Shown here: positions 3,606 through 44,900 of the stretch, piece after piece | Layout: each line of letters opens with the position of its first letter | Numbering within the stretch: the stretch's first letter is position 1 | DNA from: Phoronis australis | Taxonomy: Eukaryota; Animalia; Phoronida | Length of the DNA stretch: 64,000 nucleotides | Direction: 5' to 3' | Assembly: GCA_002633005.1 (NCBI GenBank) | Contig: NMRA01000496.1 | Location: 1-64,000 of the forward strand | The notes under the pieces: model-generated | What the model saw: the letters and a program-made list of their open reading frames with translations, nothing else | Database searches by the model: none | What the model was told of the DNA's origin: nothing | Program-made: the position numbers and the translations under genes

Positions 3606-4364
3606 CTGAAAAGCAACAAGACATTCAAAATCACATCCATCTAAAATCACGCCTGCTCACAAAAGCCTGAGCAAAAGTTGTACATGAGAATAAAAAACCT
3701 TCGTGATACAAATCAGGACGATTCCACAGTTCTCAAATAACAACATTGATGAAGATCCTCAATAGTTTTAGCTCATCAGTTTCACCCCCATGATTACCTC
3801 AGTGATGGGACTACTCTAAAAAAGAGTATCACGGGGAGGGTACTCTAAGATTTAACATTACGTATTGATATTCAAATTTCTTGAACCGATGTTAAGCCCC
3901 CGTCACACCAGAGGAGCGGTGCCACCACGGATTTTGGTCAAAACAGTCATTACGTAGTGACACCGTCAGTGGTATTTTCATAGTTTTCCCCTACCCGTCA
4001 CACATGCTTTCTTACGGTGCTACTCAGGTACAGGAGCGGAGCCACGGCGGTGTCAAGGAGGACATGGAGATTCCATGAGGTACCACTGCAGCTTGATGGC
4101 GGTGCTATTGCGATCATTGGTGGCTTGACTGCTAGGCAGCTCTACGGGACCTGTGAGGTGCCATTGTGGGGAAGGCAGTACTACTGAGGCGCTACTGCGT
4201 GGACGCTGCTGCTTCATAACGGCTCTAAGACGTACGCGCAGTGGTTAGTATATGGGAGGTGGTATTTGGTGCAATTCCGTCCCATATTTGCTCCTGCGGA
4301 GGACTTTGCTACAACTGTTATTGTTACTGTTACTGTCACATTCTGAAGCCGCTGAAACTGTCAG

Positions 4365-4635
4365 AGTGAGGAAAGCCAGCAAGAAGCACATGACGAGTCT
4401 TCACAGGATGAGCACGCTGATTGTGCTTCTGGTGCTGAAGATGCTGCAGAGTCTGACCACCAGTCCGTAACTAGCCAACCAAAGAATAAAAAGTCTGCAC
4501 TGATCTTAAAGAAGAGGACGTCATGTCGGACTTGCCATGTGGCCATCCGGAGCTTTATAACAAGAAGCTCAATGCTCATAAAGATAACATGTAGAAGGAC
4601 TCTTCGTGGGCTCAGCAAGCAGCCAGGCTTGATAA
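4365..4635 (+). pseudogene. Harbinger ORF2 (MADF/Myb-like) remnant
   Basis: Acidic stretch followed by HPELYNKKLNAHKDNM*KDSSWAQQAARL, a MADF-type motif. Confidence 0.7.
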
Positions 4636-4662
4636 GCCATTAGCATTCCTGCTGATATGGTA

Positions 4663-5354
4663 TCGCGCATCAGACGTGTATCCATCTCCACCAACATCTG
4701 TCCAGAGGAATTGGTATTCAGCGTCAACAACTCCCATCAACACCATTGAATAGAATCCTTTTTAATTGTGAAAGAAGCTTCCACTGCTGGGAGGTTTGCG
4801 AATTGCGACGTGCTTTCCACCCAGAGCCCCACAGCAAAGGGACGTCCTAGCGCTGCTTGAACTTGTCAGCTACAGCTTTACATTCGTCTTGGGTCGTAGG
4901 GCACTGGATCACCTCGTCTTTAGACGCTTCAGCAATGGCCTGGCAGACTTCCTTGACCAACACAGATACTGTGTTTGCTGGTATCCGGAAATCGAGCTTG
5001 ATTAGAGCCCAAGTGACGAAGAGATGCAGCCACATTCGTCCCTGTGTACAACGCCTTTCTGTACTTACTGTCCTTCTTTGTGATATGTGATCCAACCCTG
5101 ACAAGTAACTCATCAAACATCTCGGACTGAATCTAGGTGAGGGAATTCTGGCACCGGGCTGGACCCTCTCTACTGAACTCGACCATAAGCTGGTTGTAGT
5201 GGCCAAAATGTTCACGTCTCACATCGCCCAGCTGAGGTCTGTCCCAGTGTCTTTTTCGTCTTGGTCGTCTTCTTCTTCGCTCCAGGGCAATCATTGGTTG
5301 CTCATCTTTTGACTGGTATTGCTGCACATGCAGCAACTGCTGTATGACGATCAA
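4663..5354 (-). pseudogene. Harbinger (HARBI1-like) DDE transposase remnant
   Basis: Fragments HFGHYNQLMVE, FDELLVRVGSHITKKDSKYRKAL, FRIPANTVSVLVKEVCQAI and GALGGKHVAIRKPPSSGSFFHN*KGFYSMVLMGVVDAEYQFLWTDVG. The catalytic D of GALDGKH is lost; frameshifts present. Confidence 0.9.
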
Positions 5355-12006: not shown

Positions 12007-12895
12007 CACAGGCACCTTTAAGTAGCTCTCTACAATATATCATATAAAGAGAAAGGTACACAACTGACATTCAATATGGACGTCTGCCGGCCACTTCCGG
12101 AATAACCCAAGCACGTCAAATCTGAGAGTAATTTAACTCAAACATTTTATCTGCGACAGCAACACGTTCATTGCTTCCATTTGTTGACATATAAAGCAAT
12201 AAATATCATAAATACCTCCAGATCTTCCTAGTTCAATCCTCAACATTCAGGAACAAAGCGAAAAGCAAGAAGGCCTCGTATCAGTTTCGTCTAATGCGCA
12301 TGCTCATAAGGTCCCTCGCGACATCTTCAGAGCGCTGACATCAACTAAAAACAGCAACATTCAGAGAAGAGGCTCTTGACAGTAATTTACGAATATGTCG
12401 TCCTACCTAGCATGAGCATGTGAAAAAGCAGAGCTGTCTGTGGCCTCTTGAAAGTTTGACCTATTTTTGCTGTACCCAATCAGCGTGCTCATAGAGTAAC
12501 ATATAAATAATGTAAATTACTGTCAAGAGCCTCTTCTCTGAATGTTGCTGTTTTTAGTTGATGTAAGCGCTCTGAAGATGTCGCGAGGGACCTTATGAGC
12601 ATGCGCATTAGACGAAACTGATACGAGGCCTTCTTGCTTTTCGCTTTGTTCCTGAATGTTGAGGACTGAACTAGGAAGATCTGGAGGTATTTATGATATT
12701 TATTGCTTTAGATGTCAACAAATGGAAGCGATGAACGTGTTGCTGTCGCAGATAAAATGTTTGAGTTAAATTACTCTCAGATTTGACGTGCTTGGGTTAT
12801 TCCGGAACTGGCCGGCAGACGTCCATATTGAATGTCAGTTGTGTACCTTTCTCTTTATATATTATATTGTAGAGAGCTACTTAAAGGTGCCTGTG
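12007..12895. mobile_element. Foldback MITE with ~385-bp near-perfect inverted arms and 7-bp TSD
   Basis: Arms ~12007-12390 and ~12512-12895; termini CACAGGC...GCCTGTG; flanking direct repeat GGCGGAC at 12000-12006 and 12896-12902. Confidence 0.92.
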
Positions 12896-14818: not shown

Positions 14819-15712
14819 CTGCAGTCCCACACTCAAAAAAGACAAGAGAAACGAGTAATGTACTTACATGAACCTTCACAGCCCCGTCCATCAGCGTTTC
14901 CTTGTAGATAATTTCCTTCACGCGCAGTCTAACCTTGTCAGCCACAAGTGCACGAACACTAGCTTCAATCATCTCAAAAACTGTACATGCTCTTTCACAA
15001 TGATCCCTTTCAAGTTCAAACCCTTTAGAGGAAATTTGTTTCTTTTTGTCATCCTCAATGCTCCAGCATAAAATTCCAAACAACAACGTGGCGCTATTTA
15101 TCAAACGCATTTTGTAACTTGTACACTCGTGATCAATGTCATCAGTACACTCCACGTCCACGCCATGACAAAATAGTTTAACTATCAACCCTCCATCCTG
15201 TCTTTCTTTTATGTACGGGCATATCCTGCACATGTATGACGCTTCGAGTATATGTTTGATGGTCGTAAACACGCCAGTAGTGATAGGTGATGTGCAATCT
15301 GCCAGCCAAGCAATATTAACCATTGAGCATGTTTTAGAGTAGAAGATTATTTCCTTCCATTGCAGCCTGACATTGCATTCTTCAGTAATGTCCGTCACTT
15401 CACCATCTTTTTCATGCAATATGCGAAAGTCTTCGCTCTTTAGTCGTTGATCATCCACTTTTCCCAACATTGCTGCAACAGTCACTCGCACTTCGACTGG
15501 CTCCGAGAATGTTAGATTTCCATCTGTGCAGGTCACGCATATTCTCTGAGAATAGAGGTTAGCTCTGCCTTGGGTGTCGTAATGCACTGCCCGTGCTAAC
15601 AACAACTGATCTACAAACTCAATTTCTATGTTCCCGGATATTGCATTTGGTGGTACTCTGAGTTGAACCCCTTTGTACCCAAAAACTCCACCGACTGCTC
15701 CATCAATAGTTG
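14814..15712 (-). CDS. ZU5 domain plus UPA-like beta domain exon
   Basis: Extending ORF 14814-15605 to the acceptor CCCTATAG at 15713 gives ATIDGAVGGVFGYKGVQLRVPPNAISGNIEIEF...LYSQRICVTCTDGNLTFSEPVEVRV, the ZU5 signature (GG.L..GV.L.VP.GA ... F..PV.V). A beta-rich segment follows. The frame ends at TGA 14814, or at an alternative donor CAT|GTAAGT at 14867. Confidence 0.8.
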
Positions 15713-15985
15713 CTATAGGGATAGAAATGACATTTATCAGTACTTGGGAAGGATTGCAACGAAAGTCAATTAAGTTCCTCGTTTTCTTAGCAAGTAGCTT
15801 TTATTAGTGATCACTTCAATGTGCAGACTTTGGCACATATTATCTTAGTAATTTTGAATTTCCGTTATCAATTACAATCCGGGAATGAGAAGGTGACGAT
15901 GGCACCCTTTGTCCTTTTTATCGCTATAAATTTGAGAGTAAAAAAGCATGTGTGAGAGTAGCTATTCGGTTAAGCAGAAAAATAC

Positions 15986-16618: not shown

Positions 16619-19485
16619 TCACAACAAACCTTTTTACAGCTTTTAAAATTGTTCAGTACATGTACTACATCTCTAATACCAGAGTATTTAACATGACACG
16701 TGTAAGTTAGACAGACACTAAAAATTCTAAATGAAAGTTTATCTACCATTTCTATACTTAGTTTTAATCTGCACAAGTGGACAAAGATAACAACAGTTTA
16801 CAATAAACGCAAACGTATGACAATAAATGCAACAAAAACCTGTTTCGTTATGCACTATCCTTTCTAACAACTATGGCCTTCCCACTGCATTTCAAGGAAT
16901 CAGTTGCTACCTGGGTGTTGGTGAAATTAAGGGCGATTGGGAACGTATAGTGACTTATGGCAATCGGGAGAGGCACTGCAGTTCTACCACGCCTAAATTG
17001 GGACAAAGATTTATAATGTGCAAATGAACACCACGCCTTTTGTTTTTGTACGAAGGTATATTTTGATGCTAAATTACAAGGTAGGAGAGACAACTTCGAA
17101 GACGCTTCCTAATAACAAGAATTGCCTTGACTCTTTGCAAAGACGCAAATTTTAACTAATTTACCCACTCCAGTAATAAATTAAGGGACAAAACCTTTCT
17201 ATATATTAATTGTACTTTTTTCACTGACTTGTGAAACTGTGACCAAAATATGGAGGAAACTGATCGGGAATTTCCTTGGCTACCAACCACCCGCGTTTCA
17301 AGTCTATTAGGCTACAGACAGGAAACTTACACTGGCCCTGTTTTCAGTAAAACATCCACGCACGTTAAGTTCTCAACAAAGAAAATTCCTCATCAACTCA
17401 AAATATTGAGTTCTTCACCTCAATTTCTTAAACGGGCACGCGTGCTTTTTTAGATAGCCCCCCCACCAGAGCACCGGAGTCTCCCAAATTATCCTTAAAT
17501 GTGACGTTCAATCCTTGATATAAACAACACAATGGATATTCCAAGCCTTAGACAGTCTAACTTCTTCAGAGTATGCGATATATCCGCTTGCAATATTCAA
17601 GATGAACAACTCTCACTTAGCATCCCCATGAAGATTTCAGAAGTTTTACAGTGTCATGCCTCTTTAAGGTCCAGCAGTACTCTAGAAAAGTGTCCAACTT
17701 TATCTACCGCCGCATCTCATCTCAAAAATAAATGACCATATCAATACAAAACTTCACACATCATGCTTTGTCCATTGCTCTCACAAATTTGGATTAAGAA
17801 ATGTTTCTAAATGTCAACAGTTTAGTATGAGGGATTAACAAATATACAAGTAGGACTCAAAAGATTGTTTGAAATGAACACGGAAAAGTAACTAAGAGAA
17901 CTTTAAACAGTGTTCATCACATTAGTCAGTGGTGTTGATACGAATGCGTATTTTGCTTCACTGTATTCATAATTGAACATTCCAATTTCACCAAAAAAAA
18001 AATAGTTTGTTCAGTGATGACCACATTTCTACTGTAGGCCAGGCCCGTAAACTGCCGGCTAGACTTCTGAAACACGTTTAATTCAGGAACGTAATTTTGC
18101 GAAGTCTTGAGATAGCTTGACTTTTTCGAGAGAAAATAGGTATACAAAACGCATTCCAAGTAAACGTCACGAAGAGGAGACAGGTTCACGCTATGAAAAC
18201 TCAATCCTTCTTACCAATTGGCGGTGCAGCAGATTCCGCTGTTTCGAACAGCTCTTCCTGAAACGAAACAAAATTCAACGCACAAAAATAGTTAATAGTA
18301 CAGTAGCGTCTCTTCGAAGTAAATCAATTAACCTGAGCAACAAAATACCTAGGGAAGATCTCAAAATTACCATGTATGGATTTATGCTTTGCGACTTCAC
18401 TGACATTTTCCTCGCTGATAAATTATTTTATTCCTTCCAATAACTATTGTATTTGCCGACATAATAAACAATAGGTAGAAGTCCAGACTAGTTTGCATTG
18501 GAATTTATTCCTTTTAAATACATTAAAATAACACTTTTAAATTTCAAATAGCTGAAGAACAGAGGAATTTCCATTTGGAAGCCTCGGTGCTGCAATGCAA
18601 TAGATTTTGGTGATTTGTTTTTTTTATCATGTAAAAATGAATTGATATGTAGGTTGAAATAAGCATTGATTAAACACTATTCTGCCCTCCGCAGAGTAGG
18701 CGTGTCCACCAATTGACTGAAATCAGTTGAAAAGTCTGTTGACCTAATGACTTTGTGGAAGTCAGCGCATACGCAGAGGGAGAATACCTGAGGAGTTACC
18801 AGTATTTTTCAAAATGATTGACATTTTTAAATCAAAACAGCTTACAAAATAAATGAGAAACTACAGTCAAGAAATTAGCAAGAAGGGCAAACACTGGAAA
18901 ACTAAAATTCGAGAACCGGTAGAAATAATGTGGAATATACTAGAGCTCGACTCATTGGTTTACTTGTAAATCTACGCGGTGACCACTGCGTTTCCAAGTG
19001 TATATTTTCACGGTCAAAAGCATTCATTGACAAGACGGAACCACTACAGTGTAGTTTCCACGTCTAGTGGTATTACACAGTACAAACAAATCGTAAAACA
19101 ACAATATGTAATTACAAACAAAAAGGTAGCGTAATGTGTGTGTCTGTTTGTGTGCGTACGTGGGAGTGGGTGTGGGTGTTAGTGTGCATGTTTGTGTTAT
19201 TTCATCTTGAAATTAGAAATGCCATTTTAGAGAAAGTCCCACGGGATTTCCATTTACCTGATAAATCATAAAAACGATGGAAATGCCGACGCACAAATTT
19301 GCACCAACGGCTTCATTTTTGATCTGAAATTCCGCAACTTTGCGTTTATGCGGTATTAGATGCTGTATTCAAAATTGTGAAAATTACATAAAAACGACTC
19401 CATTTATTAAAACCTTAATATTATCACACAAATACTGTCAACAATACTTATACACTAATCACCCGATAATTTCCATGAATGCTAC

Positions 19486-19569
19486 CTTAAGGAATTCCTT
19501 GATGTTTTCTGCAGTTGATTCCTTGATCCTGCGTCCACGTCCACAAACGTCGTAAGCGGTTTCTACAGC
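19486..19569 (-). CDS. C-terminal capping ankyrin-like exon (AVETAYDVCGRGRRIKESTAENIKEFLK)
   Basis: 84 bp, TTTTGTTGCAG acceptor, AAG|GTAGC donor, phase 0-0; the TAYD...I.EFL pattern is typical of a terminal ankyrin repeat. Confidence 0.75.
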
Positions 19570-27319: not shown

Positions 27320-27361
27320 AGTGTGTCTTACCACACAGTTCCATTTACATTCATGTTTTAC

Positions 27362-27460
27362 CTTGTTGACAACTGTGACGTCACCATCCTTTTCCACGAG
27401 GAGTTTCACAACGTCCAGATGGCCGTATTCACAAGCACCGTGCAGCGGTGTGTCGCCATT
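27362..27460 (-). CDS. Ankyrin-repeat exon 5 (NGDTPLHGACEYGHLDVVKLLVEKDGDVTVVNK)
   Basis: 99 bp, TAG acceptor, AAG|GTAAAA donor, phase 0-0, canonical ankyrin consensus. Confidence 0.95.
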
Positions 27461-30400
27461 CTACATCAAATAAAACAGGCTTAAATAAACAAATACGAGT
27501 ACAAAGCGAGATACTTATCTGCATGTATACAATGTAACAGGACATGGTTGGGTAAGTGGCAATGCTTTAGCAGTTTCACGCAAATTGTAAACGAACATTG
27601 ACATGTCTTAAACCGAAATAAAAACGACCTAGTTATAATCCATCACTTCCCACGAACTTATTGAACAAAGCGATTTTCCGCTTGGTCAACAGAGCGACAA
27701 AAACAACACCTTCAGTGAAGATGTGAAAAAATAAACCCACAAGGAAAATCAAACATAACAATACGGTTAATTACCAGGAACCAAAGTGAAACTATTCTCA
27801 TTTATCCTGCTTACATGTTCAGTAATAATTTTCTGATCAACGTGTATTTAATTAGCTGTTGCCACACCAGCATCTTTCTTCTCGGAATATTCCATGTCGC
27901 CGACCACCATTGGACATGCACGACTGAGTACCGGTAGCAATCGGTTAGTCACGTACATGTACAACTCCCGGAAACCAAGCCGAGCGTTTAGTTTCTAATT
28001 AAGGACGTATTCAATACATTAGTTAAAAACTCCATTACTATTTAGCCTATTGGTCCACTTCACAGAGCATGTCTAATGTCTGCAACTCGTACGGATTGTC
28101 AATGTTTCCGTAAACATACATGTACCGTAATCCACGGAATACAAGGCCATGACCTGATGGTACTGTATAGCCGTTTACTGGAACATAAGGCCACAGCTGT
28201 ATAGGATGGGTCATTTCTATTTTAAAGTGCTCTGTAAAAGTTCGTTACTTTGCCTATAATGCCATAACAAACGTAGCACAAAAACGTGTAAAAGAATGCG
28301 CGTGACAATATTATTAATAATGTTAAAATAATGATGATTAAGTTAAGTAAAACAAGATACGTGTGATCACATCGCACAACACCATACAGCACAGCTACTC
28401 CGCACCCAGACAGTGTTCAGTGTTTGCCATTTCGGAATTCGCGGCATAGTTTGCTTGCCATTTTATTGTTCTTTACCATTACATAAAGTTTTTGTCCTGA
28501 TTGGTAAGCCAGAATAACGCCATTGCCTTACATAGTACGGGTCATTTGCATTTTAGTGTTCTAAAATGCATTATACGTTTAGTTCCGCACGGATGTAATG
28601 TACATCGTTTGTTCAAAGAAAAATGCTTAAATATTCCACAAGCACTAGCAATGGATCATCCGCCTTAAATTAAGCGATTTTTTCAGGGTTGGTACATTTT
28701 CAGTACTTTTCATTTAACAAAAAATTGCAAAATTGAATAAACGTCAATGTTTGCCAATTAGTTTTTCAAATTTAACAAAACAAAAAGTAAAGGAGCCATG
28801 TTCCTACAGCTCAACACGGTTGTGGAATTGCGTGACGCAGAAACTTCAAATTGTAAAATTGACAAATAATTAAGCAAAACCAAAACGTTCGAGTTATTAT
28901 TCATTTGAATCAAGTCCCCCGGGATTAGCGGAGAGTTTACTCTAGCCGAACAGAGATAAGAGACACTTTCAGTCAGAACTGAAAAGAAATAGATATCAGA
29001 GAAAAATCAAACACGTTAATCATGTACGTTATCGACACTTTAAAAATTAAACCACTTCCACTGATTTGGATTTTATCGAGCAACAGTTTGACAATTACTT
29101 TGTAATAGCCAAGCTTTTCAACGGCAAGTGCTACACCAGCGTCTTTTTGCGGAATAGTTCGTTTCGCCGACCATCTTCTTTTCACCGATGTGATCTTCCG
29201 CTACTTGAAACCGATATGCGTTTTCAAATTTTATATGATCCAATAATCAAGCCGTGTTTTAATTTTAATTTCAATTGAAGGACTATCCCAATACACAATT
29301 TCAGAACAACATAACTGTACAATATACCTCGATTATCAATTAGCATTCAGTTGGCAATTTATTTTAATTTCACGTCCCAGCTTCTCTTATTCTTTCGTTA
29401 CTTGTTCAGGTCCATGCATATCTTCAGCTGTGCGTTTGTATAAAAAATCGCTCGAACTTCCTACTAGCAATCGACCACCACTCTTAAAACTGAGTGTTCT
29501 AGCATCGTCATTGGTACATCTTCAGAACCTTGCCTTTAAAGCAACATGTCAACGTTTAACAAGTTGTACTTGAAAAGTCCATTTTCACTCACGAAATCTT
29601 TTACTCCTGTTCACGACGGCAGACTCAGTGAAATTGGCAGAGTCTGCAGATTTGAAATTTTTCGCTTTAAAATCAGTATGGACAAGATTGCACGATGTTC
29701 TGCAGCCGTTCTGCGACAGATTCGCGTGCGAACTGAGGGTGTCGGATACCAATCTTTGGAGTTTCTAACCAAATGTATTGTCGAAACATTACGAGTCACA
29801 ATCATTTTGCCAAGGTTCAATTCTATTGGACATACACAATGTGTGGAATCATAGACTATAGTCTATAATCTAGGGTGGAATGCAGTTGCAGACAATTTCG
29901 TGTTTGACTTCATAAAACGTCAATAATGTATGCACAAACCGGAAGCGTTCGGACTTTACGGTGGTGGAGAATAAGGAAGACGTGCAATTTCTTTACCGAG
30001 GGTCAAATTGAGCGGAAACATCATACTTCAGTTTTACTTCAGATTGGTGCAGAATGTGCAACTTGGGAATCCAGAATCTGTGATTTTTTGAAGATTTATG
30101 AAGCTGCTTCATCAAAGGACACCCAGGGTCGGTATTTGGCGCCCGCAGAGAGCGCACCCCTCACGATGTTCTTTTTAGCTTAGTTACTGGAAAATCAGTT
30201 CTTTGATAAAATACATGATTGTTAACTGAACTACAAACTCAAAGACGAGAGTCAGTTACGTCTTTTGTGTAGTCTATACCTGTATGACATCCACACTAAA
30301 TTTACATATTATAATGTTTCAATAATATGACTTTGGACGGGTGAGGAAAGCGAAGACACTGTTGACAACCGTAATCATAAAAATGACCTAACTTCTTAAT

Positions 30401-32929
30401 AAATTATGAAAACAGCCATAATTTGCATTACTGTAAACAAGAGACACTGCCACTTATTTTACGATTGTTATGTTGCTAAAGAGTCTGCACTGTGAAAAAT
30501 AAAAATATAACTTAGTTCCTGACAAATAGTCAATGTTACTTAGATCACTTCCTGTCATAGTTGTCAGTGTTGGAGAAAGAAAAGTGACAACTTGATAGCA
30601 AAAAAATCTGGGTCTGGTAAAAGAACGAGTGAAATGATTGCAGCAACAGAAGAAACTAACCTACAGCGTTTTTGTCGAACGAAGATTACGAGTGTCGCAA
30701 CGCCAAAGCGCAAGAAATTTTTGAATTTAGTCGACTGCAAACTTAAACACGTTGTTTACTCAGTTTATGAATGATAGCTACTGAGTCATAGCTCACGAGT
30801 ATTTGACGACGCACCAAGGTGTGTTCGACACCTAGATTGTACAATGTATTTTTACAAAGCGCACACTACCTGTATGATGGTGACATTTTTCAATCAGATT
30901 TGTCATTTGCATTTTTTACTTAAAGAGTGAGGCAAAATGCTGCTAAGCCCGTCAAGATGCCCAACAACTTCTACACGAATATATCCACCTAGGTCCGAAT
31001 AAAAACACCTTGACCAACTAAATTCAACTGCAACTGAGCAAACGAAATAGTCTGTTAATCCCTTGCGAGTTTGTAAAAACCTGGGAAAGCGAGGATTCCA
31101 CTCCTTGATTTTGTTTCTCGTTTTATTGATCTAAAATTAACAGTTTTTGCTCTACTGAAGTCATGTTTTTGAACTTGGGTAATAAATATAATTTCCATGT
31201 TTACAAGTGAAGTCAACCTCACCGACACATGAACACCATCGAGACTCACATACCGCTATCTTTTGTTTTAACAACAAAAAAGGGCATTAACCTGAACTTT
31301 TGAAACATAAAAAATACCATCTCGGTGATATATTTGTCGATTTCAAGGTTTTTAGTGAAGCAGGCACCCACTCGTAATCAATCTATTTTGATGCAAGATA
31401 TTCCGGCATCAATTTGAATTCTTTCAGCTTGAATTTGGTGAACTTAAATAATTGTATCGATATTATAAGGGCAAAAAACGTGTCACTTATAACAAGCAGT
31501 CGGTATTTATAGTTTTGTTACTGCATGTGGCGATTACGAAGGGATTCTCAATGCAAAATTCCCGACATCACTGGCTTGCGCGAGAGGAACTTAAAAGAAT
31601 ACTACATAGAGCAGAAATAACAGTTTTTATGAAAATGGCGTTCACAAACACATTTCATGGCTTATAAAGAAATAAATGGCGCTTCGATTTAATAATAGAA
31701 ATTAAATATGTACAGAACTGGTTTTAAAGCAAGATGAAGGTCTTTTTGATGGAATAGGTCGTTGGTAAATGAAGAAATCCTCAAACTCAGAGTATCCTGT
31801 GAGCACTACCCACAAAACTGTAAAATCAGTTCCGAACATCAGGTGTATTCATTCTCCAATGTGGTGGACCTCAGATAAGTTCCTACATCATTTTGAAGTT
31901 CCTGTTGTACATTTTAAAAGCAGTAAATGAGATATTTGGACTGGTTAATGTATGTTTGACACATGAAACTTTTGATAACGTGGCCACCAACACAAATCAC
32001 GTCCAGACCTAATCAAGATGTTTCAAAAAGAAATCACGTACGACAACACAAGCCCCACGTTGAAATGATGAAATACATCCTTATAACCTTAAAAGTTTCC
32101 GCAACTAAACAATAAAACTTGCTGACATATCAAGAAGACGAGAGATCAACAAAATAAACACCATACCGTATTTTTGAGACGAGTGAAGCAGACGACAGGT
32201 ATAAAACACGGTACTGTTTCCGACAACAAAATTCATGCAAAAATCGTAAACAAACCAGCTTCAGTGTATACACAATTTAAAGCACCTGCACATGTATACA
32301 CAAACTTTGAATTTACATATTGTATTGTGGACCACAGCTCGTTTACTAGGTTCACAGTGCTCGGCTTGGCACCGTGATAAAAGGACTTGTGCTTTCGACG
32401 GACTACCTGGGACTTTGCCTCAGTCACGCCCTAGATTTCAACTTCATAGAATAGTAAATCCGACCATGGCAGGAACATACACGGTTGTTTGGTGGTTTTG
32501 AAATACATGTACAGTTAAGCCACGGGGTTAAAACACACGGATAAATTGATTGCTAAATAATCGTTATATTGAAACAAGCGAGACTAAAACCTTCAGAAAT
32601 TTTCTAAACGCGCATTTGATTCCTTGCAGTGACTCGAATATAAACCTGCATGTTTTATAAATAATGAAGCGAGAAAATCTGAACCTGTGGCTGTTGTCTA
32701 TTTTTATTTCGTGCCGAATTATCGCGATTAGACAATCTGCTTTGATCCATTGAGTGTTATGGGAAGGTACATGCAGTGAAGAAGTGACTTTTTTGTGTAA
32801 CTCTACGCAGGAGACAGATCATTTTTGACGACATATTTATTACAAGTGAATAGTGTTCGAACTCATAGTACATTTAAAACACATTTATTACAGTCTCAGC
32901 TAAACAAGAGTACAACACTCTTGCAATAC

Positions 32930-33031
32930 CTTGTTGACGGTATTGACGTTGCATCCGCTTTCCCTGCACAGTAGTTTCACTACCTCTGTATGTCCACCTG
33001 CAGATGCCTTGTGCAGCGGTGTGTCACCCCA
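32930..33031 (-). CDS. Ankyrin-repeat exon 4 (WGDTPLHKASAGGHTEVVKLLCRESGCNVNTVNK)
   Basis: 102 bp, TAG acceptor, AAG|GTATTG donor, phase 0-0. Confidence 0.95.
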
Positions 33032-33580
33032 CTACAGTAAGTGAACAAAAATAGATAATGTTGATCAGCATTATACAGTAGTGATGTGAGTGGGTGAACA
33101 GGTCGAGTTTTATACTTTTCCAGTTTAAACTTTAACATCAGTTGCAATACTGATGGAGGGTGTGACTCAACAGGACAGATTAAAACCTGACATTTAAACT
33201 CAGACATAACTTGCGCGGGATTTTTAAAAAGTTCCTCTGACCTGATATAGTCACGTGATTGAAAAGAGTGTTTTAAATATCACAACTTGATCTTATACAT
33301 TACAACAGAGAACATTCATTTAATGAGTGCTGTGGAAATGCAAGTAAAGAACCACATCACTGTGCAAGTCTAGGTGAACTAAAACTGTTTATAATTAGTT
33401 AAAGTCGCGTGCACGTCACGTCACGTGCGGTGGAATGCAACAAAAATGTCAATGTTTAAAATGAAATCATAAATCACGATTAATTAAATCATTGAATGAT
33501 TCAGCCAAGTCACATGTTGTGTGTTCATCACGGTGTGTAAACAACTAGTTCAACTAAACAACCTGTGTGTCATTACTTAC

Positions 33581-33682
33581 CCACTCATCACGTACATCTA
33601 CACTGGCCTTGTTGGCCAACAGCAGCTTCACTGTGTCTGTATGACCACCCTCTGCTGCCTCGTACAGCGGTGTCCGGTCATC
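33581..33682 (-). CDS. Ankyrin-repeat exon 3 (DDRTPLYEAAEGGHTDTVKLLLANKASVDVRDEW)
   Basis: 102 bp, TAG acceptor, GTAAGT donor, phase 0-0; tandem duplicate of exon 34043-34141. Confidence 0.93.
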
Positions 33683-34042
33683 CTATGTAATATATAATGG
33701 AGATGTGGGAATGGACGATCAACGTTTAGAGCTAAGTAACATACACGGGGGAACGTGAACTTGTAAGGTGACATAAATGAAACATTACGGACCCCTCTAA
33801 GACGCTACAATACTTGTAATGAATTCAAGAATCAGGTGTTACAGATTTTAAAACGTTACAGAGCATGTTACAACTCTACGCAGCTTTGGTTCTTCACCAA
33901 GAAAAGCAGACGACATTGAACTTGTCATTGTTTTAGGACAATAAATTGTGAAAAATATCAACAAAACTTGTTCCTAAATAGTTTTAATCATCGTGTTTGT
34001 TAACAACTAGCTCAACTAAACAAACTGTGTGTCATTACTTAC

Positions 34043-34141
34043 ATCATCACGTACATCTACACTGGCCTTGTTGGCCAACATCACCTTCACTATGTCTGTA
34101 TGACCACCCTTTGCTGCCCAGTGCAGCGGTGTCTGGCCATC
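34043..34141 (-). CDS. Ankyrin-repeat exon 2 (DGQTPLHWAAKGGHTDIVKVMLANKASVDVRDD)
   Basis: 99 bp, TAG acceptor, GTAAGT donor, phase 0-0, TPLH motif. Confidence 0.95.
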
Positions 34142-34706
34142 CTATGTAATATATAATGGAGATGTGTGAATGGACGATCAACGTTTAGAGCTAATTAACA
34201 TACACGGGGGAAAGTGAACTTGTAAGGTGACATGAATGAAACATTAGTAACCCCTCTAAGACGCTACAATACTTGTAATGATTTCAAGAACCAAGTGTTG
34301 CAGATTTTAAAACGTTGCTGTAAGAACAGAACATGTTGTAGACGTCCATTGCCAGAAATTACAGAGTTCCTCCATAACTTGACAGCGATCCCGCCATGTT
34401 GTATTTCTTCACCGATTTTCTGGCTTCGCGTTTAATATAAAGTTGTAATGTTGAATGGACGATTGTTATTAAGAATAGAAAAGTATCAACTTTAAGTCGA
34501 CAAATATATTGTTGACACAATTCAAACCTCAATTTTTCTTAAGATGCATGTACACAGTACAGACTGAAAAATATTTGTTGAAATCATGAGATATGAAAAG
34601 TGTATTTACACACAAAATATTTCGTTAAACTTCAGATAGTCTACAGCTTTTGTAACAAAGATAACATTGTCTTAATTCTAATGTCGTCTCAAGTAATTGC
34701 TATTAC

Positions 34707-34802
34707 CCAGTCTAGCACTTCTACATCGGCCCCACCCTGCACCAGCACCCTCACCACCTCCGTCCTGCCCCACACTGCTGCTATGTGAAGTGCTGTCAGG
34801 CC
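34707..34802 (-). CDS. Ankyrin-repeat exon 1 (GLTALHIAAVWGRTEVVRVLVQGGADVEVLDW)
   Basis: 96 bp, TTTCTGCAG acceptor, GTAATA donor, phase 0-0; fits the ankyrin consensus G-TALH-AA--G--EVV--L---GADV. Confidence 0.92.
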
Positions 34803-35867
34803 CTGCAGAAACAATGAACAAGTTATAGCAAACTTCACAATCACTAACTTCACTGTGAATCTTAATTACTTGTCATGCAAAGGTTGAAATATCACAATTG
34901 TACACAGATTCTCTGTTAATTTGATATGAGTAAAAGATTTAATTAAATTTTCCTTTGTTAGCCACCTGAACGGGTATTTTGCTAAAAATAATTCTTAACA
35001 CAAAATACGATATAATAAACAGCAATGTTGAAGCTAATGTGCTCTGTATGAAAGCAGCGATTATAAGGTTAAAACTTACGGGGTCGCCTGATATTCTTAG
35101 TATATCTACCCGAATACCTGATGGGTGCATCAATTGAAAAAGACGTCCAGTTTCACTTCTGCCCGAGGTCCAAAATAGTTTCTAACGAATTTGGGTCATT
35201 AACAAACAGGAACGAAATTATGAAAAAGCATCAATACCTGATTGAAATGATATTGGAATTGGCTATTATTAAAATACAACTGAAGTATGAAGTAGTTTAA
35301 TGAATATTCAATTAGGCAATCTTTGGTAGGCCTATATGGTGTTTTACTGATTAGGAACAAATGCAGAGAGAACACATTCAACTTGTCAATGACTTGGTAA
35401 CTGGTAAAACCTCCTAGAAAAGAATACATGTAAACCCTTCTCTACAAATTAAGCACATGATGAAACACATTTTACCAAAACCATTCTTCTAATAAGACTG
35501 ATGGTCAATCAATCACGTGGTTCACATATTGCCGAAAATACAAACGAATTGTTCTGATGTTCTGAGTCTCCAGACGTCGAGGCAGTGGTTTGGCCAAGCG
35601 AACTGCTGCTTTTAAAAAGAGCGCTTTGCCGGCCAGTTTTCGCGTGTACACGCGATAAAGTGATACATTGGCCTGTTCTTGAATATATATAAAGGGGCAT
35701 TTCCTTATCACAAGGAGCCAATTAAAGAGACTACGACCATGACAAATATCATGAAACGTACTGCATCTTGAGTTTATCGACACGCGTTTGACATTGTAAA
35801 TGCTGTGTTTCGGCATGGACACTATTTTCAAACTTGCTTAAAAAGTTTGACAAGATCAATGACTTAC

Positions 35868-35879
35868 CTTATTCAACAT
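35868..35879 (-). CDS. Putative initiating coding exon (MLNK)
   Basis: Minus strand reads ACAAA-ATG TTG AAT AAG|GTAAGT: good start context, consensus donor, phase 0. It joins the next exon to give MLNK-GLTALHIAA, an ankyrin N-terminus. Confidence 0.45.
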
Positions 35880-37779
35880 TTTGTTTTTGATGTTGCGTAA
35901 AGAACGGAAAGTCAAAAATATGCGGTGTCCAAGACTTTCATATTCAGTACGGAACGATCACGACCTTTTTATGACAAGCAAACAAGGACTACAAAAAAGT
36001 CAACATCAACATAAGCTGCCTCTACTTGCCTACGGCCACTTGGACCCGACGGTGACTTGGATAAAATATAGAAAACAGACGTATAAATAACGTGCAAAAA
36101 TGCAAAATTATGCGTCATAGAGTCATATCCTCCATACCAAAAATAATGATAAAATGTTGCACCGCAAAAGTTAAATTTATCTTTTAATCAAATTCTCATG
36201 AAATTACCATCTCGCCTAATACAGAGGAGTTCACTTTCCCCTTGTTAATAAATTTACAGAAAAATCACACATTTGCAGTTGACAGATTTTATTTTTGAAA
36301 TTTGGAAATAAAAGAAAATGCTCTGTCATCAACAGAAATTAAAAATATTTACGAACAAAACTGAAAAAGACCAGGTGAGCTGGTTGAAATGTGTTTCAGT
36401 GGTGAAGAATTACATCCAATATTTCAATTTAGTTTGCTTATCGGGTTCCAAGCCTCTAATAAAAGATAATTTGGGAGTTAATAACTAGACATGCATTTGC
36501 AGGTCAACACTGCATTTCATTTCACTGAAATGTTCAAAACCAACATTTGAGCATTCAATGGCTTCTGAGTTAAATCAAGCAACGCAATAGCGATCGTTTC
36601 AATTGTGTTGAGAAATAAATTTTTAGTTCACAATATATTAGTGACTATTAGAACAGAGAATCTGGTTTAAAGATCAAGAATTGGCCCATGTCGCTTCTTA
36701 CTTTACAAGCGTAATTCCCAGACCCGAGTGTTCACTAGTTACATGTACCTACAGCAGGGTGATAATCACTCGTAGTGATTAATTTCATGACCCACTTTCA
36801 TCAAACGAGAGACAATGAAATTTGAAAAGTCAGCCACACAACCATGACAAGAACGTCTCTCATTTAAAACACAGTTGCGTCGTCACCGTTAACTAACAGC
36901 TATTATTGAGCACATTCTCCACGCGTTAGAATGTTGCAGTAGTACAACTGTACAGACTCAAAGTCTCATGCAAGCTGAGGATTTGGCCACCGGTATCAAC
37001 TTGCAATGTGCGGCTTGGAATTTCAAACATATGATTAGTGAGTTTTTATATATACATGTACATTTCTGGCAGATACATGGCAAATATGGTGCAATTCCCA
37101 TGGATCCTACTATCATTTACTTGTTGCCAAACGAAGTTCAAAGGAACACTAACATTAATGTATTGGCTGTAAACACACATGTATCGCGTGAGTATGAAAT
37201 AGTGCTGAATACGTGATCACTGGTCACAAAACAGCGATGTATCCAGTAATTCTGTGACGATTAACTGAACAAATTATATGGTGGAAAGGCGTATTGTTTT
37301 AAGTATTGTGTTGAGATATGTCCAATTACAATATCCTGGACAGTACCGTATTGCTACACTGTTCGGTCCCGTTGTTTGAGGTAAATGCAGGGAATCTTGT
37401 TTTGGAAATATCAGGCAACAGCCTGTTTGAACATGTGTCACATTTTTTCTTTTCATCGCAAACGACATCAAACGACTGAATGACAACCCTAGGCATACTA
37501 ATAGCCGAACCTCAGCCACGACTTGGGTTTCAGCAGACCAGTTTTGGGCTGCAAACTATTGCAAAGTAGACGCGACATTTATCGGAACAAGCACCCAGTG
37601 CTCTATAAATCACCACCTTTAACTCTTGAACATCTTCAATAAGGCGCCAATAGCTATGGCAAGTGCCCACCTTTCCTTTATCTCTCTAAAATTAATTTTC
37701 AAAACTTCAAGACGCGTTTAAAAAGCGCTAAACGGACCAAAGTTTGGAGTCGCAATGTTTTATGTTTGCAGTGGTCGTC

Positions 37780-37796
37780 AGGGTTAGGGTTAGGGC

Positions 37797-37827
<31 letters not shown>

Positions 37828-37894
37828 CTTAGGGTTAGGGCTTAGGGTTAGGGTTTAGGGTTAAGGTTAGGGTTAGGGTTAGGTTTAGGGTTAG
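37780..37894 (+). repeat. Interstitial telomeric repeat (TTAGGG)n
   Basis: About 18 units of TTAGGG with CTTAGGG and TTTAGGG variants. Confidence 0.97.
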
Positions 37895-38234
37895 AAATAT
37901 GGTTCTCCTCTCCTCCGTCTTGAAAAGACGTGGCAGTGGTCTGGCCAGGCGAAGCGTTGCTTTCAACCCCATTTAAAACGTCTGTACGTCAAATGAATGT
38001 CAAACAACTCAAATAGAAGAATTATAGCTTTATGGTGATTGGCCATGGTCTCTTTAATTGGTTCATTGTGATAAGGAAATGCCCCTTTAAATATTTTCAA
38101 GAACAGGCAAATGTATCAATTTATCCCGTGTACACGTGAAAACTGTAGCCTAAGGCAAAGCGCTATTTTTCAAATTCACATTCAAATTCATGTATTTCAA
38201 CATTTAAGGCCTTGGACCACATGTTACATAAAAT

Positions 38235-41200
38235 TTACAGGATAACGCTGAGAAGCTTTTCCCTGAGAGCAGTGGCGTGAAATACAAATTTCATTAGATT
38301 AATCTGAGCGATGGGCTCCGACATTTTCATTAGTTTTACAAATTTATGTTTATTTGGTTCACGCCAGCACCACTCAGGTACAAATGCAGTTCTCAGAGAG
38401 CAGTACATTTTACAAACACATATAAAATGGTATTCATCTTCAATTAAGGACACACAGAAACAACACACACGTTATTTTTGGTCCACGAGAGTATGTCTAC
38501 CATTCTCTATCATCAAGTTGTGGTTGGAACAACGTAATTTAGCCATAGCTGCTAAAAAGATATATGGTATATCACGCAACAGATAGGATTCCATTTCAAA
38601 ATCAATTTTAAATGAGAAATATGTATTAAGTGTTGAGCTATTCTCCACAGCAAAGCTCCAGTCTTGTAAAAAACAATCTTTAATTCGCTGCTCAAAATTG
38701 ACAAGAAACGATGCTTCGTAGCCAACTCCCTGATTGTACCATACCAAACCAAAACCATACCTTTGCAGCAATTTCCTAACAGATGAAGCCCAATTTTTAC
38801 TACCAGCCTCATCCAATGTGACAAGCTTGTCATAGACAGATTTTGGATTTCGATGTGCTGGCATTTTTAACAATTTAAACCAAAACTTGATCGGTTTAAC
38901 AAACAGCTTTACATCAATTGAATACCTTCCCAGTTCTCCCAGGACAGCATGATTTGGACAGTTACTTCCAACACCCAGCAGTTGCTTACAGAATTTCAAT
39001 TGGACTTGCTCGATACTAGAGTATTCTTTAAATCCCCAAATCTTACTTCCATAGCTAATGATTGGGTTTACCATTTTATCAAAAATCTCGAGTGCAATTT
39101 TCGGTGAAAGTCGTCCACATTTTGACTGAAAACGTTTAATTGAAAAAATTGCTTTCTGTGCCTGGTGAGACAAAGTTTCCGTAGCTTGCGTCCAGACTAA
39201 CTTACTGTAGGTGTAAGGCAAATATCCAGGTACTTATATGATGAGACGACATCAATTTTGTCATTTCCAAAATGCCATTTTTCGTATTTTCTCAAAGGTC
39301 CGCCCTTTCTAAATACCATTATTTTTGTTTTTGCAAGGTTGACTTTCATACCCCAATCCTGACAGTATTCATACAGAGCGTTAATTTGTTGCTGTAGTTT
39401 AAATGCTGTCTCTGCACAACCAACCATATCATCAGCGTAAAGCAACATACAAATTTGAGGCACATTCTCATTTACGTAAATTCCGCTAACTGAAGATTCT
39501 CTTAAGTAATCAACAAACTCGTTCAAATACATACTAAATAAAAAGGACTAAGCATACACCCTTGGCGAGTACCAATATTATTACTGAAAAAGTCAGTTAA
39601 CCCACGCTCAGTTCTTACACACGCTCTTAGCTTTGAATACATACTTTTCATCAATTTTAAAACACTACCATGTATTCCTATTTTTGAAGCCTATTCAACA
39701 AAAATTTATGTGAAATGCTGTCAAAGGACCGAGAAAAATCCACGTATATAGCATAAAATCTGCCCCTGCGCTTACTCAAGTACTTATGAACAATTCCTTG
39801 TAAGGTAAAATTTTGGTCTATTGTACTATACCTCTTTCTAAAACCAGCCTGAGCTTCGTTAAATAAGTCATTATCGTTGGCCAAACTTGTTAGACGAGCT
39901 TTTATGAGTTTCGTAAAAATTTTCCCGAGAACAGGCAGAAGTGAAATACCCCGATAATTATTTACGTCATTGACGTCCCCTTGCTTATGCAATGGACATA
40001 TTATAGCGTCACACCAGGACTGAGGAAATTCCCCTGATCGTAGAGCACTATTAAAAATGTTTGTCAAAACATGTGTTACATAATCTTTGGTGGACTTAAA
40101 GAGTTCATCAATGAGTCCGTCAACACCGGAAGCCTTACCGTTAGGTAGTTCTAGAAGAACGACAAAAATCTCACTTTCGCTAAAATCATGATTCAATTGA
40201 TTCGGGACATCTACCATACAATCCTTACAATACACATCATGACTTGCCAAGTTTCTTTCTATTTGTGCAATCACACGTCCATTATCAGGATTTTCTTGGT
40301 TTAAGAGTGAGTGAAAGTGGCAAAACCATTCATCAGCAGAAATAGAAGTATCTGACGTCATTTTCCTAGAGCATGATTTTACTAGCTGCCAAAACGCTCT
40401 GGGATTGTTAACATTTTCAATTAAGTTTTTCCTCAGTCCATCTTTAAATAACTTTTCTTTTGACTTAAAAGTCACTTTGAATTTTTGTCGCAATTCTTTG
40501 TACTTATTAAAATTAACCTGATTACTATAGTGTCGGAAACCAGTCAATGCACTATTTCTCTCTCTTTTCAGCACCTGTAACTCCTCATCCCATCATGATG
40601 GTTGGATTTTCAAAAATTTAACCGCAGCATTGGAGTGTACAATCATGTCGCAGGCAGCTGATTTATACACTTCATTTAACAACTGAACTGCGTCTTCAAC
40701 CCGACAACTCTCAATAAGATTCGCTATATCACTAGAGAACACTTGGAACCAACTGACAAACTTGTACATGAACTGACTACATCTTTCAGCCTTCCATCTA
40801 ACTCTGTCATATTCACGGACGACATAATTTGTGCTATGAACAGTGTGATCCTGTGACTGAGTGAAGCCGTGAAAAACACAAACAAGAGGAAGATGATCAG
40901 ATACATCCAATAAATCAACTTTAAAATCTGATACAAAATCAAACAATTCAGTGGACAATAGTACATAATCAACTACACTACACCCTTTATTAGATAAACA
41001 CGTAAACTCTCCTTCCTCATCACCTGATAATCTACCGTTACATGCATGGACATTTACATCGCAACACATTCTCACAAGTGATTTTCCAAATGAATTAATA
41101 ACATGATCTTTACTAATCCTTGGAAAATTAAAGGCATCTGAGTCGTACCATTCACCTGAAGGCAAAAATCTGCTGAGTCGTCTTGAATATAATCGGAGAG

Positions 41201-41640
41201 TTTGCCAATTCTAGCATTAAGATCGCCAGCAACCAAAAGAGATACATCATCGTGGGCATTCAAAAGGGCATCTTCAATACCACTTCTCAAGATTTCTACA
41301 CCATTCTTTTCAATTTGATTTTCATACACTGTCGCACCCTCAGGTGGCAAATAAACACCACAGAATAATACATCCTTTTCAGTACACAATAGACTCTTAT
41401 CAATTAATAGAAAAACACCAAAATCGAAATCATATTTCACTCGAGTTACATGCCGAGCTAAACATTTTTTACAAACACACATACTCCACCGGAGTTTCTA
41501 CCAAACCTCTTTTTCTTTGAATTAACTTTACTAAAACATTTGTACCCAGGCAAAAAGTTATCAAATTGATTTTCGTTCGTTGCCCAAGTTTCCGCAACTC
41601 CAACTAAATCAAAAGAACATAAATAATCAACGATACTTTT
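38235..41640 (-). pseudogene. LINE ORF2 (endonuclease, reverse transcriptase, C-terminal Cys/His motif), frameshifted
   Basis: Motifs GVAETW, GDLNARIG, SVVDYVL, SDHLP (APE); YRGISLL, QAGFR, YVDFSRSFDSI, LLYADD, YKYL (RT); CCFC..EDEYHFICVC. Split across several ORFs. Confidence 0.93.
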
Positions 41641-41754
41641 CTTCTCTGTTTTGCTACCTAATCCGTGTACATTCCAGACTGTTGTACGTATTTCACTGGT
41701 CCTTGAAGGCTCTGGGCCATGGCCAAACTGCTAGGCATTTCTGTAGATATCATG

Positions 41755-41969: not shown

Positions 41970-44900
41970 CGCTATTTTTAAGAGCAACGGTTAGAATTTT
42001 CTACTTCGCACCACAAGTTTTAAGATAATAGATAATTTACTTTAGGGTGTTGTTTTAAGAGGGAAATGTTAAAAATTTTGAATTCTCAAAGAATTTCATA
42101 TGCAAAGGGACGATCACGATTGCTTTGATGACAAACAAACACGAAGTACAAAAAATTCTGCATCTTGAACATAAGCCGCACTTTGATGTTACGTCACGAC
42201 TAGCAGACGGACACTTGGATCACACGGTTAGTGTATGGACAAAATAAACAAAAATACGTACAGATGTGTACAAATGGAAAATGCATAATAGAATATGGCA
42301 CTCATACCCAAAATTATAAAAACATGTTGAGCCTTAAAACAACTGTCTGTTTGAAAACTATCTACATGTAAGCAAAGCCTTAAAATATCGTTTATCAAAA
42401 GTCACCCAAGTACAATGCATCATGTGAACATCAATCCATCTATTAATAAAAGACAATCTGGAAATCTATAATTAGCATGCATTTGAACGTCAACACTGTA
42501 CTGCGTTTCACAATAATTTTCAAAATCTAATATACAATGTAGCAATAAAGATGTCGTGGGATTGAAATCAAGCCAACGTCATTATGTTCGTTTGAATTGT
42601 ATCTGCTCCCCCCACCCCACCCCCTTGACTGCCCTAAAAATGAAACATTAAGCGCGTGAGGAAAAACTGAGTTCATTACTTAACCGCAGTAATGAACGGC
42701 TTGGTTTGCAGTAAAATTTTAGAATTCCGGTTTATACTGGGTACAGTACGTGCTCGCGAATGGCCGAGACAAAATGTCGCCCCCTTTGTGATATCCTAGA
42801 TCCGCCACTGTATTGAATTCATTCTCGACACGTTACTAATGTACTACTGTACAGACCCAACTTTTCATGCGAGCTGAGATTTTGGCCACTCGTATTGTGT
42901 CGCAATATGCGACTTGGAATTTTCAACATAACCGTACTGAGTTTTTACATGTACACCTCTTGGTTGAAACCTGGCAAATATGAATCAACTCATGAGTGTC
43001 TGAACATAATTTTGTTGCTGCCGAATTAGTTCAAAGAACACTAACGGAGAAGAGCCAGATAAATGTCTAGCGTTTGCAAACATACATGTATCGCGAAAAC
43101 ATGAAATAATCCTGAAAGGGTTTTTGTTGAAATGTACTTTGGTTACTTTTTCAAATATTCGGATGCCCAGGAGAATATTTCAGACCACGTGATAAGACGT
43201 CACAAAACGGTGACGTTTACGATCAAGTTACCAAACTTTGTCTTGGAAAAAACATGTAATTTTTTTTGAGAAAATTGTCCGGATTATGAAATTATATTAT
43301 CCCAGATCATGGGCGACGCAGCAATGAGGAAAGTTAGGGTTATAGCCCCTAGACCCCTTGTGGAGCACCGCCCGTACTCCATGGGCAATGAAAACAGTGG
43401 AGGGTACAACCACCCACAAACCACTATGGTGCGACGCCCGTGCAGATAATAGATCCCATTGCGACACTGCTTGGTATTGTTCTTTGTGCTCACGGTCGAG
43501 TCCCGGCAAGGGATCGTGATTCGGTAATGTTAAGTAACGGCCTGTTTGAACACGCGTCCTGTTTTTTCGCAAAAGACAAAGTGAGTAAATTACAACCCTA
43601 GGTCCACTAATAGGCAAACGACGTCTTTTTCAGCGGAAAAAGTTTTGAGTTGCTACATATACAACTATTGCAACTTATTTTTAAACAAGCAGACATAAAG
43701 TTTTGAGCAATCATTTTATTCCTTTTATTCGCACACACCATGCCAATTTTTTACTCCCCAGATCATAAGTCGACTATGTCACTGATTTATAAAACTTGCT
43801 TGGGAAAAAATATTGTTCCGACTGAAACGTCAGCCAAAAAGAGTTAAGAATTTTGCGGGTGGCTAGAAAACACGTGGATGTTAACGAAATCCACACATTC
43901 GCGCCTTGGTGGTGCGCGTTGGACAAAAATATGGCGTTGCATCATTTCTTGCTATTCCAGTCTTTTGATGTTTTAGTACGCAACCATTTGGTAAAAAAAA
44001 AACTAAATTTGCGCCTATTCTTTACCTTTGAAACATTTTGTAACAAGCACCCACTGGTCTACTATTCGCCACTCTTAACTTTTGACAAAATTCAATAAAC
44101 CGCCAACAGCTCTAGCAAGCCCCACCATTAATTTCCCTCACTGAAATTCATTTTCAACACTGCAAGATGCGTTTAATATGCGGTAACCGGACCAATGTTT
44201 TGAGTCGCAGTGTATTAAGTATGTGGGGTCCACGGAGACATCGAATTCTGTAAGAGACTGCGTGGTTTGAAACTGTCATCTACGATGTCTATAGTCGGTC
44301 ACACACTTATTGTAGTTAAGAGTAAATTTGTTCTCCAAAAGAACCCCTCCTTTTATCAATACTTAAAAGCAAAGTCCCGGATTCGGTTGATGCCTCCGAA
44401 GGAGAATTAACCCCTCCCACATGCATGTTGGTTTCACGTGTCGTTTCTAGGCTAACATACATGTATATTCTGCAAAATTGTATGGCACGTACAGTGTATC
44501 CGGTCCCAAGGAGCAAACTCGAATTACACGGTAATGGGAAACCGCTCATGTATACATATACTACTTAAAATCACGTCAAGACAGCACCCCAAACCTCGCA
44601 GCAACTCGTTCCAAGAATAACATATTCTTCGACAGGGTTGTATTTGGATGGTCCTAATGCCTAATATCTCTGATCACAGCATATTACTAAATTAGGAGAC
44701 AATCTACAAACGCGGTTGACTGGAAAGAATTTAAAAATATACCATACTGCATGACGACATGCTGTGAATGTTCTAATAGTGTTTCAAAGTATTTTCTGCA
44801 AAGTTAGCAAAATAAAAGATGAATCATTTGTTTCTGTCATAGATCAGAAACATTAGTCCAAGGATGTCTTGTTCAATAATATAGTGCATGGAGTCGTATA

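Follow-up and report, generated by a model that had tools for sequence, protein, structure and literature searches.

On balance, we consider it reasonably probable that two neighbouring ankyrin exons on the minus strand of the window (the 64,000 nucleotides of Phoronis australis DNA analysed here), hereafter exons A and B, belong to a family of in-frame exons, present in multiple copies and encoding one repeat each, in which selection acts to diversify the surface through which a predicted ankyrin-ZU5-UPA-DED sensor binds. Duplication and sequence exchange between copies would keep the scaffold alike, with unequal crossing-over or gene conversion homogenising the framework, and selection would promote residue changes on the concave, binding face of the ankyrin stack; the available part of PMC8229355 describes the concave face as the target-binding side of designed ankyrins. 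The ankyrin exons would be spliced to ZU5-UPA and DED exons and, by analogy with UNC5B and PIDD as presented in the accessible part of PMC3210808, binding of a partner to the ankyrin stack could free or cluster the DED via ZU5-UPA, and the freed or clustered DED could then recruit a DED adaptor or caspase. The binding partners may be foreign molecules, from pathogens or otherwise non-self. Both the role in ligand specificity and the immune-receptor function are suggested by domain content and analogy.

Variation in the exon pair and among family copies

Exon A (34043 to 34141, minus strand) is 99 nt long and encodes one full repeat in phase 0-0, and exon B (33581 to 33682, minus strand) spans 102 nt in the same phase; both are bounded by AG/GT ends and score above the Pfam Ank cut-off, at 44.5 and 35.9 bits, respectively. 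Each sits with flanking intron in a duplicated minus-strand unit, A in 33995 to 34316 and B in 33533 to 33857 (325 nt), which are 91.4% identical to each other; about 137 nt that the copies do not share lie between them, and their outer flanks differ. Over the 32 shared codons, of which 24 encode identical residues, we counted nine nucleotide differences in eight codons (G/D, Q/R, H/Y, W/E with two nucleotides, K/E, I/T, V/L and M/L) and no synonymous difference. Exon B carries Asp in place of the hairpin Gly and one additional codon at its 3' end. This recount reproduced exactly the substitutions and terminal difference described in an earlier note on this DNA, as well as its 11 differences in the duplicated intron, which lie in the 175 nt on the acceptor side; four more occur in 48 nt on the donor side. 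That the intron is less divergent than the exon, as the note had also claimed, holds for the raw values (15/223, or 6.7%, versus 9/96, or 9.4%) but not as a statistical difference (Fisher p 0.27).

Ordinary purifying selection is rejected for the pair, with P about 1e-4 at a dN/dS of 0.2. However, since about three quarters of random changes in the A and B codons alter the residue, nine non-synonymous differences out of nine have a neutral probability of 0.079, 0.057, 0.046 and 0.040 at transition weights of 1 to 4. Nor are the changes clearly concentrated on the binding face. In the portion of PMC4308713 available to us, the designed ANK-N5C library randomises repeat positions 2, 3, 5, 10, 13 and 33, and its C-cap sequence was used to fix the repeat numbering. 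The A/B changes fall at positions 4, 5, 9, 10, 13, 19, 22 and 23, so that 5, 10 and 13 are the only ones shared with the library (3/8, p 0.15, on a near-identical position set); of the others, 4 and 9 belong to the framework, and 19, 22 and 23 are found beyond the hairpin and first helix. Placing the changes mostly on the binding face was thus an overstatement, and the pair taken by itself is weak evidence that offers little proof of selection.

The signal is an excess of variation over the silent rate among near-identical copies. Using exon A with short flanks as the reference, we aligned 398 and 407 reads from two RNA runs as well as 82 and 111 contigs from two DNA contig sets of one sample; no more than 11 of the 398 and 14 of the 407 reads matched exon A at 99% or better. 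At a likeness of at least 87% and a share of at least 10%, the complete variant table for exon A comprises 35 variant letters at 27 sites, which pool alleles and paralogues, are unphased and do not represent independent events. DNA contigs also carry 30 of the 35 letters, and RNA editing is therefore not their source. On the background of exon A two of the 35 letters are silent, against a neutral share of 22-26% (P 0.002-0.009), but by hand count up to about seven of the 35 would be silent on another codon background, which equals the overall neutral share. Because the letters are unphased and up to about seven are possibly silent, a site-based test is the safer one.

For this, the six codons randomised in the ANK-N5C library were specified beforehand (PMC4308713). 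They hold 20 of the 35 variant letters (permutation p 0.0002), position 14 holds four more, and when interior codons only are considered the six still account for 12 of 27 letters (p 0.004). At the level of sites, 10 of the 12 first and second letters of these codons are variable, whereas outside them 2 of 15 fourfold silent sites (p 0.0004) and 3 of 26 degenerate third sites of all kinds (p 0.00003) vary. The result persists with DNA-supported variants only (9/12, p 0.002) and without the two exon-end codons (6/8, p 0.006). Variation is concentrated at repeat positions 2, 3, 5, 10, 13 and 14, where it exceeds the silent background, and library-randomised position 33 shows no common variant in the exon A family. 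Diversifying selection on the binding face, proposed in the earlier note from the pair, hence draws its support from the family-wide reads and little from the pair. Silent-site variation in exon A is of the same order as the divergence of 342 nt of the intron preceding it, for which we counted at least 25 differences, most of them near-fixed, among the 40 of 789 rows listed. In old repeats of unrelated proteins from Mytilus and oomycetes (53-61% identity), too, these positions vary most, and variability at these locations alone is therefore ordinary.

With respect to the origin of the pair, the letters of exon B at positions 5, 9, 13, 19, 22 and 23, that is six of the nine differences, are common variants in other copies, whereas its Gly-to-Asp change and both position 10 letters are absent from the common family variants. 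Because of these six, A and B are probably two draws from a shared pool rather than a duplicate that gained nine selected changes, and the history implied earlier, a single duplication followed by nine selected substitutions, is probably wrong. In every read and in nearly all of the contig depth that crosses the last base of exon A (at 34043-34045), G stands where A has T, and the weaker donor context of A is thus the unusual form in the family.

We regard it as unlikely, although it is the strongest of the rival explanations, that the pattern reflects relaxed constraint in a young redundant exon family whose surface tolerates change, with B decaying and often skipped and the lack of silent differences arising by chance. 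The neutral probability of the pair is 0.04-0.08 and the pair was picked from a scan, the hairpin Gly change of B is not among the common variants, and each of the three raw-read runs described below contains joints leading directly from A-type to exon-4-type exons. Framework replacement sites, moreover, are variable at the silent rate (10/54 versus 3/26 degenerate third positions, p 0.53); with the two rates so close, this sample gives no sign that the scaffold is under purifying selection. Yet tolerance would raise replacement sites to the silent rate and not far above it, as seen at 10 of 12 library sites versus 2 of 15 and 3 of 26 silent ones. It also sits poorly with codons 22-32, the 3' third of exon A, which contain one variant letter despite the best DNA coverage, and with the recurrence of B-like, one-codon-longer hairpins in spliced transcripts.

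Transcripts, exon order and hairpin length

We sampled about one fifth of each of three raw RNA runs carrying the same species label and aligned the reads to positions 27330-35600. The target attracted 1278, 1173 and 1427 reads, nearly all in one orientation, which is consistent with transcription from the minus strand. Just 13, 9 and 9 of them were at least 99% alike to the locus, so the transcripts derive mostly from other alleles and paralogues. Among the joints listed, A-type exons were spliced to A-type exons in 10, 9 and 7 reads of the three runs and straight to exon-4-type exons, skipping B, in 17, 4 and 11; B-type to B-type joints were found in 11, 4 and 0 reads and exon-4-type to exon-4-type joints in 21, 13 and 0. 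Joints from exon 1 to A-type exons were also present, and the joint between exons 4 and 5 (27462-32933) was covered by 10, 13 and 0 reads. These repeated and skipped exon types indicate that the number and order of cassettes vary across transcripts, with alleles, paralogues and splicing pooled.

Hairpin length varies as well. By hand count, three listed joints (4, 4 and 7 reads) and one more carry a hairpin longer by one codon at the junction, and one listed joint (19 reads) carries a form shorter by two codons. We had considered that the extra codon of B might be a defect peculiar to this copy or a relic of cDNA repair, and rejected this because one-codon-longer hairpins recur in spliced transcripts; in the exon A variant table, no insertion of an extra codon like that of B reaches a share of 10%. 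Exon B may be functional or skipped. In one of the runs, RNA depth exceeds 100 in the intron before exon A (34142-34706), which suggests that this intron is retained, or that transcripts start inside it, in some copies.

Loose ends show that exons with the 5' half of A diverge into other 3' halves near 34085, 34096 and 34112, and that genomic copies share the intron adjoining the acceptor. Mosaic exons of this kind, combining the 5' half of A with other 3' halves near 34085-34112, would fit exchange between copies. They could also be read as the work of a dedicated diversifier, either short-tract templated conversion from donor exons or regulated combinatorial cassette splicing, with selection acting afterwards. 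We think this quite unlikely, in spite of the recurring points at which the 3' halves change, the variation of all three letters in the hot codons, the whole-codon changes in hairpin length at splice junctions (one codon longer in four listed joints and two shorter in one) and the same intron flank in many genomic copies. The locus contains five ankyrin exons and no array, the variants are already present in DNA contigs from one sample, alleles or paralogues with different exon numbers explain the joints equally well, and neither a donor locus nor a dedicated enzyme was seen.

Predicted gene model and output domains

Besides A and B, we found three ankyrin exons at the locus, all on the minus strand. 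Exon 1 of those found (34707 to 34802; 96 nt, 32 codons, phase 0-0) has AG/GT ends and a Pfam Ank score of 35.1 bits, exon 4 (32930 to 33031; 102 nt, phase 0-0; 39.8 bits) is reached from A-type exons and joined onward to exon 5 in RNA, and exon 5 (27362 to 27460; 99 nt, phase 0-0) scores 39.2 bits. In exon 5, which is not expanded, two silent changes and one replacement (repeat position 10) occur among the 40 of 789 rows listed. All five ankyrin exons are thus in phase 0-0, 96-102 nt long and encode one repeat each, so that the gain, loss or swap of an exon leaves the reading frame intact.

Further downstream on the same strand, sequence pattern predicts a C-terminal capping exon (19486 to 19569; 84 nt, phase 0-0) with AG/GT ends and an open frame, for which Pfam returned no match. 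It is followed by a candidate linker exon (18215 to 18257, phase 0-1), the sole one to pass the splice filter between the cap and the ZU5 exon; a 22-nt microexon near 16750 was set aside as the linker because the splice sites of 18215-18257 are better. The predicted ZU5-UPA exon (14868 to 15742; 875 nt, phase 1-0) matches Pfam ZU5 at E 0.0056, short of the cut-off, and its top ESM Atlas matches are UPA and ZU5 clusters at 0.95-0.96 with a recognition value below the threshold of the tool; single-sequence structure prediction gave an unusable model (pLDDT 35). A second candidate linker (10413 to 10467, phase 0-1), one of four candidates, has flanks that align with 18100-18420. The candidate first DED exon (8498 to 8609, phase 1-2) is blank in Pfam by itself but fits the next exon in splice sites and phase, and the second exon of the predicted DED (3433 to 3605, phase 2-1) covers positions 33-81 of 82 of Pfam DED at E 0.0052, likewise below the cut-off, with ESM Atlas matches to DED clusters at 0.82-0.85 serving as a lead only. 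With the two 0-1 linker candidates included, the ankyrin exons and the DED are connected by a complete in-phase series of exons. We infer from it that the gene encodes an ankyrin-ZU5-UPA-DED protein, splice phases being what suggests the link from the ankyrin exons to ZU5 and DED.

Around the two linker candidates, the intronic stretches 17673-18676 and 8875-10838 are homologous (67-72%); flanks and splice sites are conserved between them, whereas the exon bodies are very unlike in sequence and length (43 versus 55 nt). The stretches could be either a linker module that was duplicated around the ZU5-UPA exon or the remains of a single repeat.

No NACHT or NB-ARC domain was detected in 150 of the 160 minus-strand frames of positions 1-36200 or in another 140 (at least 42-45 codons), and the gene may run past the window. 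An upstream ankyrin or start exon was found neither by tblastn, a small profile (with one mis-framed row), three short motifs and a pattern scan nor by Pfam on 128 upstream frames, and after the DED no exon passed the splice filter. Close protein relatives were absent among 2093 candidates for the ZU5-UPA exon and among 117 for the DED exon; two representative-library matches to the ZU5-UPA exon are repeat-driven and look spurious. Searching PDB sequences with this exon gave chance alphaRep matches only and no solved ankyrin structure at E up to 5. The A/B profile matched 343 generic ankyrin proteins, with none above 66% identity among the best 120 of these. Spliceosomal introns, a TTAGGG array and the ZU5 and DED content are what one would expect of an animal, probably an invertebrate. 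The translated ZU5-UPA exon lacks the HF/S or SF/S self-cleavage motif as given in the accessible part of PMC3210808, which makes self-cleavage unlikely.

Diversifying selection could be real and yet serve a non-immune function, such as gamete, symbiont or developmental recognition, or act through other output domains. The order ankyrin, ZU5, UPA and death fold also fits structural ankyrin adaptors. This shared domain order and the conjectural nature of the ZU5-UPA-DED link lend such a function some support; however, a terminal DED together with ZU5-UPA is typical of apoptosis and immune signalling proteins according to the available parts of PMC3210808 and PMC8195603, and we judge a non-immune role improbable. 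Finally, it is very improbable that the assembler collapsed two alleles in tandem to give A and B, or that the variation reflects read-alignment bias: although the assembly is scaffolded with N gaps, the best-matching DNA set contains only 0.31 of the sequence words and codons 1 and 33 can be distorted where reads are clipped at the exon ends, the copies have an unshared stretch of about 137 nt between them and unlike outer flanks, tandem A-type joints occur in transcripts, the 5' 70 nt of A are found letter for letter in an independent DNA contig, the signal persists in interior codons and at DNA-supported sites, and the likeness filter is blind to silent versus replacement sites.

Related repeat systems and neighbouring sequence

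On the features tested, the gene containing A and B appears to be neither an NLR, nor a canonical ankyrin, nor a self-cleaver of the PIDD type. As far as the available parts of the sources go, ankyrin repeats of fungal NLRs are near-identical, polymorphic in repeat number and selected at five positions on the hairpin and inner helix (PMC4986451), and a 2026 survey describes, at the protein level, repeats of high internal conservation also in animal NLRs (PMC13449251). The Phoronis exons resemble the fungal examples, including Podospora Pa_3_8560 and Pa_2_8180, in number variation and variable positions on the binding face, and to some degree in near-identical repeats (PMC4986451, PMC13449251, each in part). 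In comparison with the 80-100% identity of the fungal type, A and B are 91% identical in DNA and the family copies were filtered at 87% or more, and the other three ankyrin exons show 43-67% identity to A and B. Hypervariable binding-face positions above the silent rate are present here at 10 of 12 versus 2 of 15 unphased sites, and repeat-number variation is present in three RNA runs with alleles, paralogues and splicing pooled. Fungal NLRs, as described in those parts, combine a NACHT or NB-ARC NTPase with C-terminal repeats, whereas here no NTPase was found and the repeats lie N-terminal to the predicted ZU5-UPA-DED; moreover, each Phoronis repeat occupies a separate exon, unlike the fungal NLR ankyrins.

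One repeat per exon and in-phase introns are shared with the brown-algal ROCO (LRR) and NB-ARC-TPR genes, for which the accessible part of PMC11378527 likewise describes exon shuffling, diversifying selection and varied transcripts and proposes a role as immune receptors. Those genes join LRR or TPR to ROC-COR or NB-ARC, in contrast to the ankyrin repeats with predicted ZU5-UPA-DED found here, and alternative splicing is reported for them, whereas the varied joints in Phoronis come mostly from other alleles or paralogues (PMC11378527, in part). PIDD1, UNC5B and NLRP1/CARD8 have ZU5-UPA and a death fold, with the order LRR, ZU5, UPA and DD in PIDD, and the likeness to the PIDD type lies in a repeat sensor followed by a predicted ZU5-UPA and a death fold (PMC3210808, in part). 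Compared with that same description (PMC3210808), the Phoronis gene has ankyrin repeats instead of LRRs, one ZU5 and a predicted DED rather than a DD or CARD; it lacks an HF/S or SF/S motif, and its sensor is hypervariable and present in multiple copies.

The ankyrin-1 sequence gave 23 matched stretches in our analysis. Canonical ankyrins R, B and G consist of about 24 repeats, two ZU5 domains, a UPA and a DD. The predicted order of ankyrin repeats, ZU5, UPA and death fold is the same as theirs, but the Phoronis gene has five repeats and a predicted cap in 64 kb, one ZU5 and a DED-like end, its ZU5-UPA exon has no sequence match to solved ankyrin structures, and it varies rapidly where they are conserved. 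In the available part of PMC8195603, invertebrate expansions join DEDs and ankyrins and are presented without an exon-level cassette pattern, and the accessible portion of PMC8683736 gives no positions. We found no description of this combination of features in the open-access literature, a search in which subscription papers fell mostly outside and supplements of the fungal survey could list animal cases.

In relation to designed libraries (DARPin and ANK-N5C), natural variation occurs at the shared positions 2, 3, 5, 10 and 13, and in addition at 14; the exons depart from the libraries in that position 33 has no common variant and that the hairpin also varies in length (PMC4308713, in part). 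A bolder version, which we hold to be doubtful but deserving of some weight, is that the family constitutes a natural DARPin library, in which one-repeat exons, exchangeable for one another and numbering from dozens to hundreds, would have hypervariable binding codons and hairpins of varying length, be recombined through conversion and combinatorial splicing, and feed ZU5-UPA-DED death sensors; if so, it would represent an intracellular repertoire for recognition that is Dscam-like and has no NTPase switch. Were the favoured reading of a selected multi-copy exon family correct, the regime of concerted evolution and hypervariable paratopes known from fungal NLR ankyrins and brown-algal repeat exons would extend to an animal, where its targets would be ankyrin cassettes of one exon each, coupled to a death-fold output and not to an NTPase. 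It would also provide a testable candidate for intracellular recognition diversity in an animal without antibodies, and a natural set of binder sequences for comparison with engineered ankyrin libraries.

Several other elements lie in the window. Upstream of the ankyrin exons, a broken LINE-type element with endonuclease and reverse-transcriptase matches occupies 38472-41730 on the minus strand. An element with inverted ends of about 130 nt and an interstitial TTAGGG array (37780-37894) spans 35610-38174, and a copy of it with 67-78% similarity is located at 42035-44223. A long inverted repeat, apparent by eye, lies at 12100-12720 in the intron that follows the ZU5-UPA exon and is absent among the self-comparison rows listed. 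Between the two DED exons, positions 4000-5800 are blank in a Pfam scan, GC-rich (49%) and read like a decayed transposase gene.
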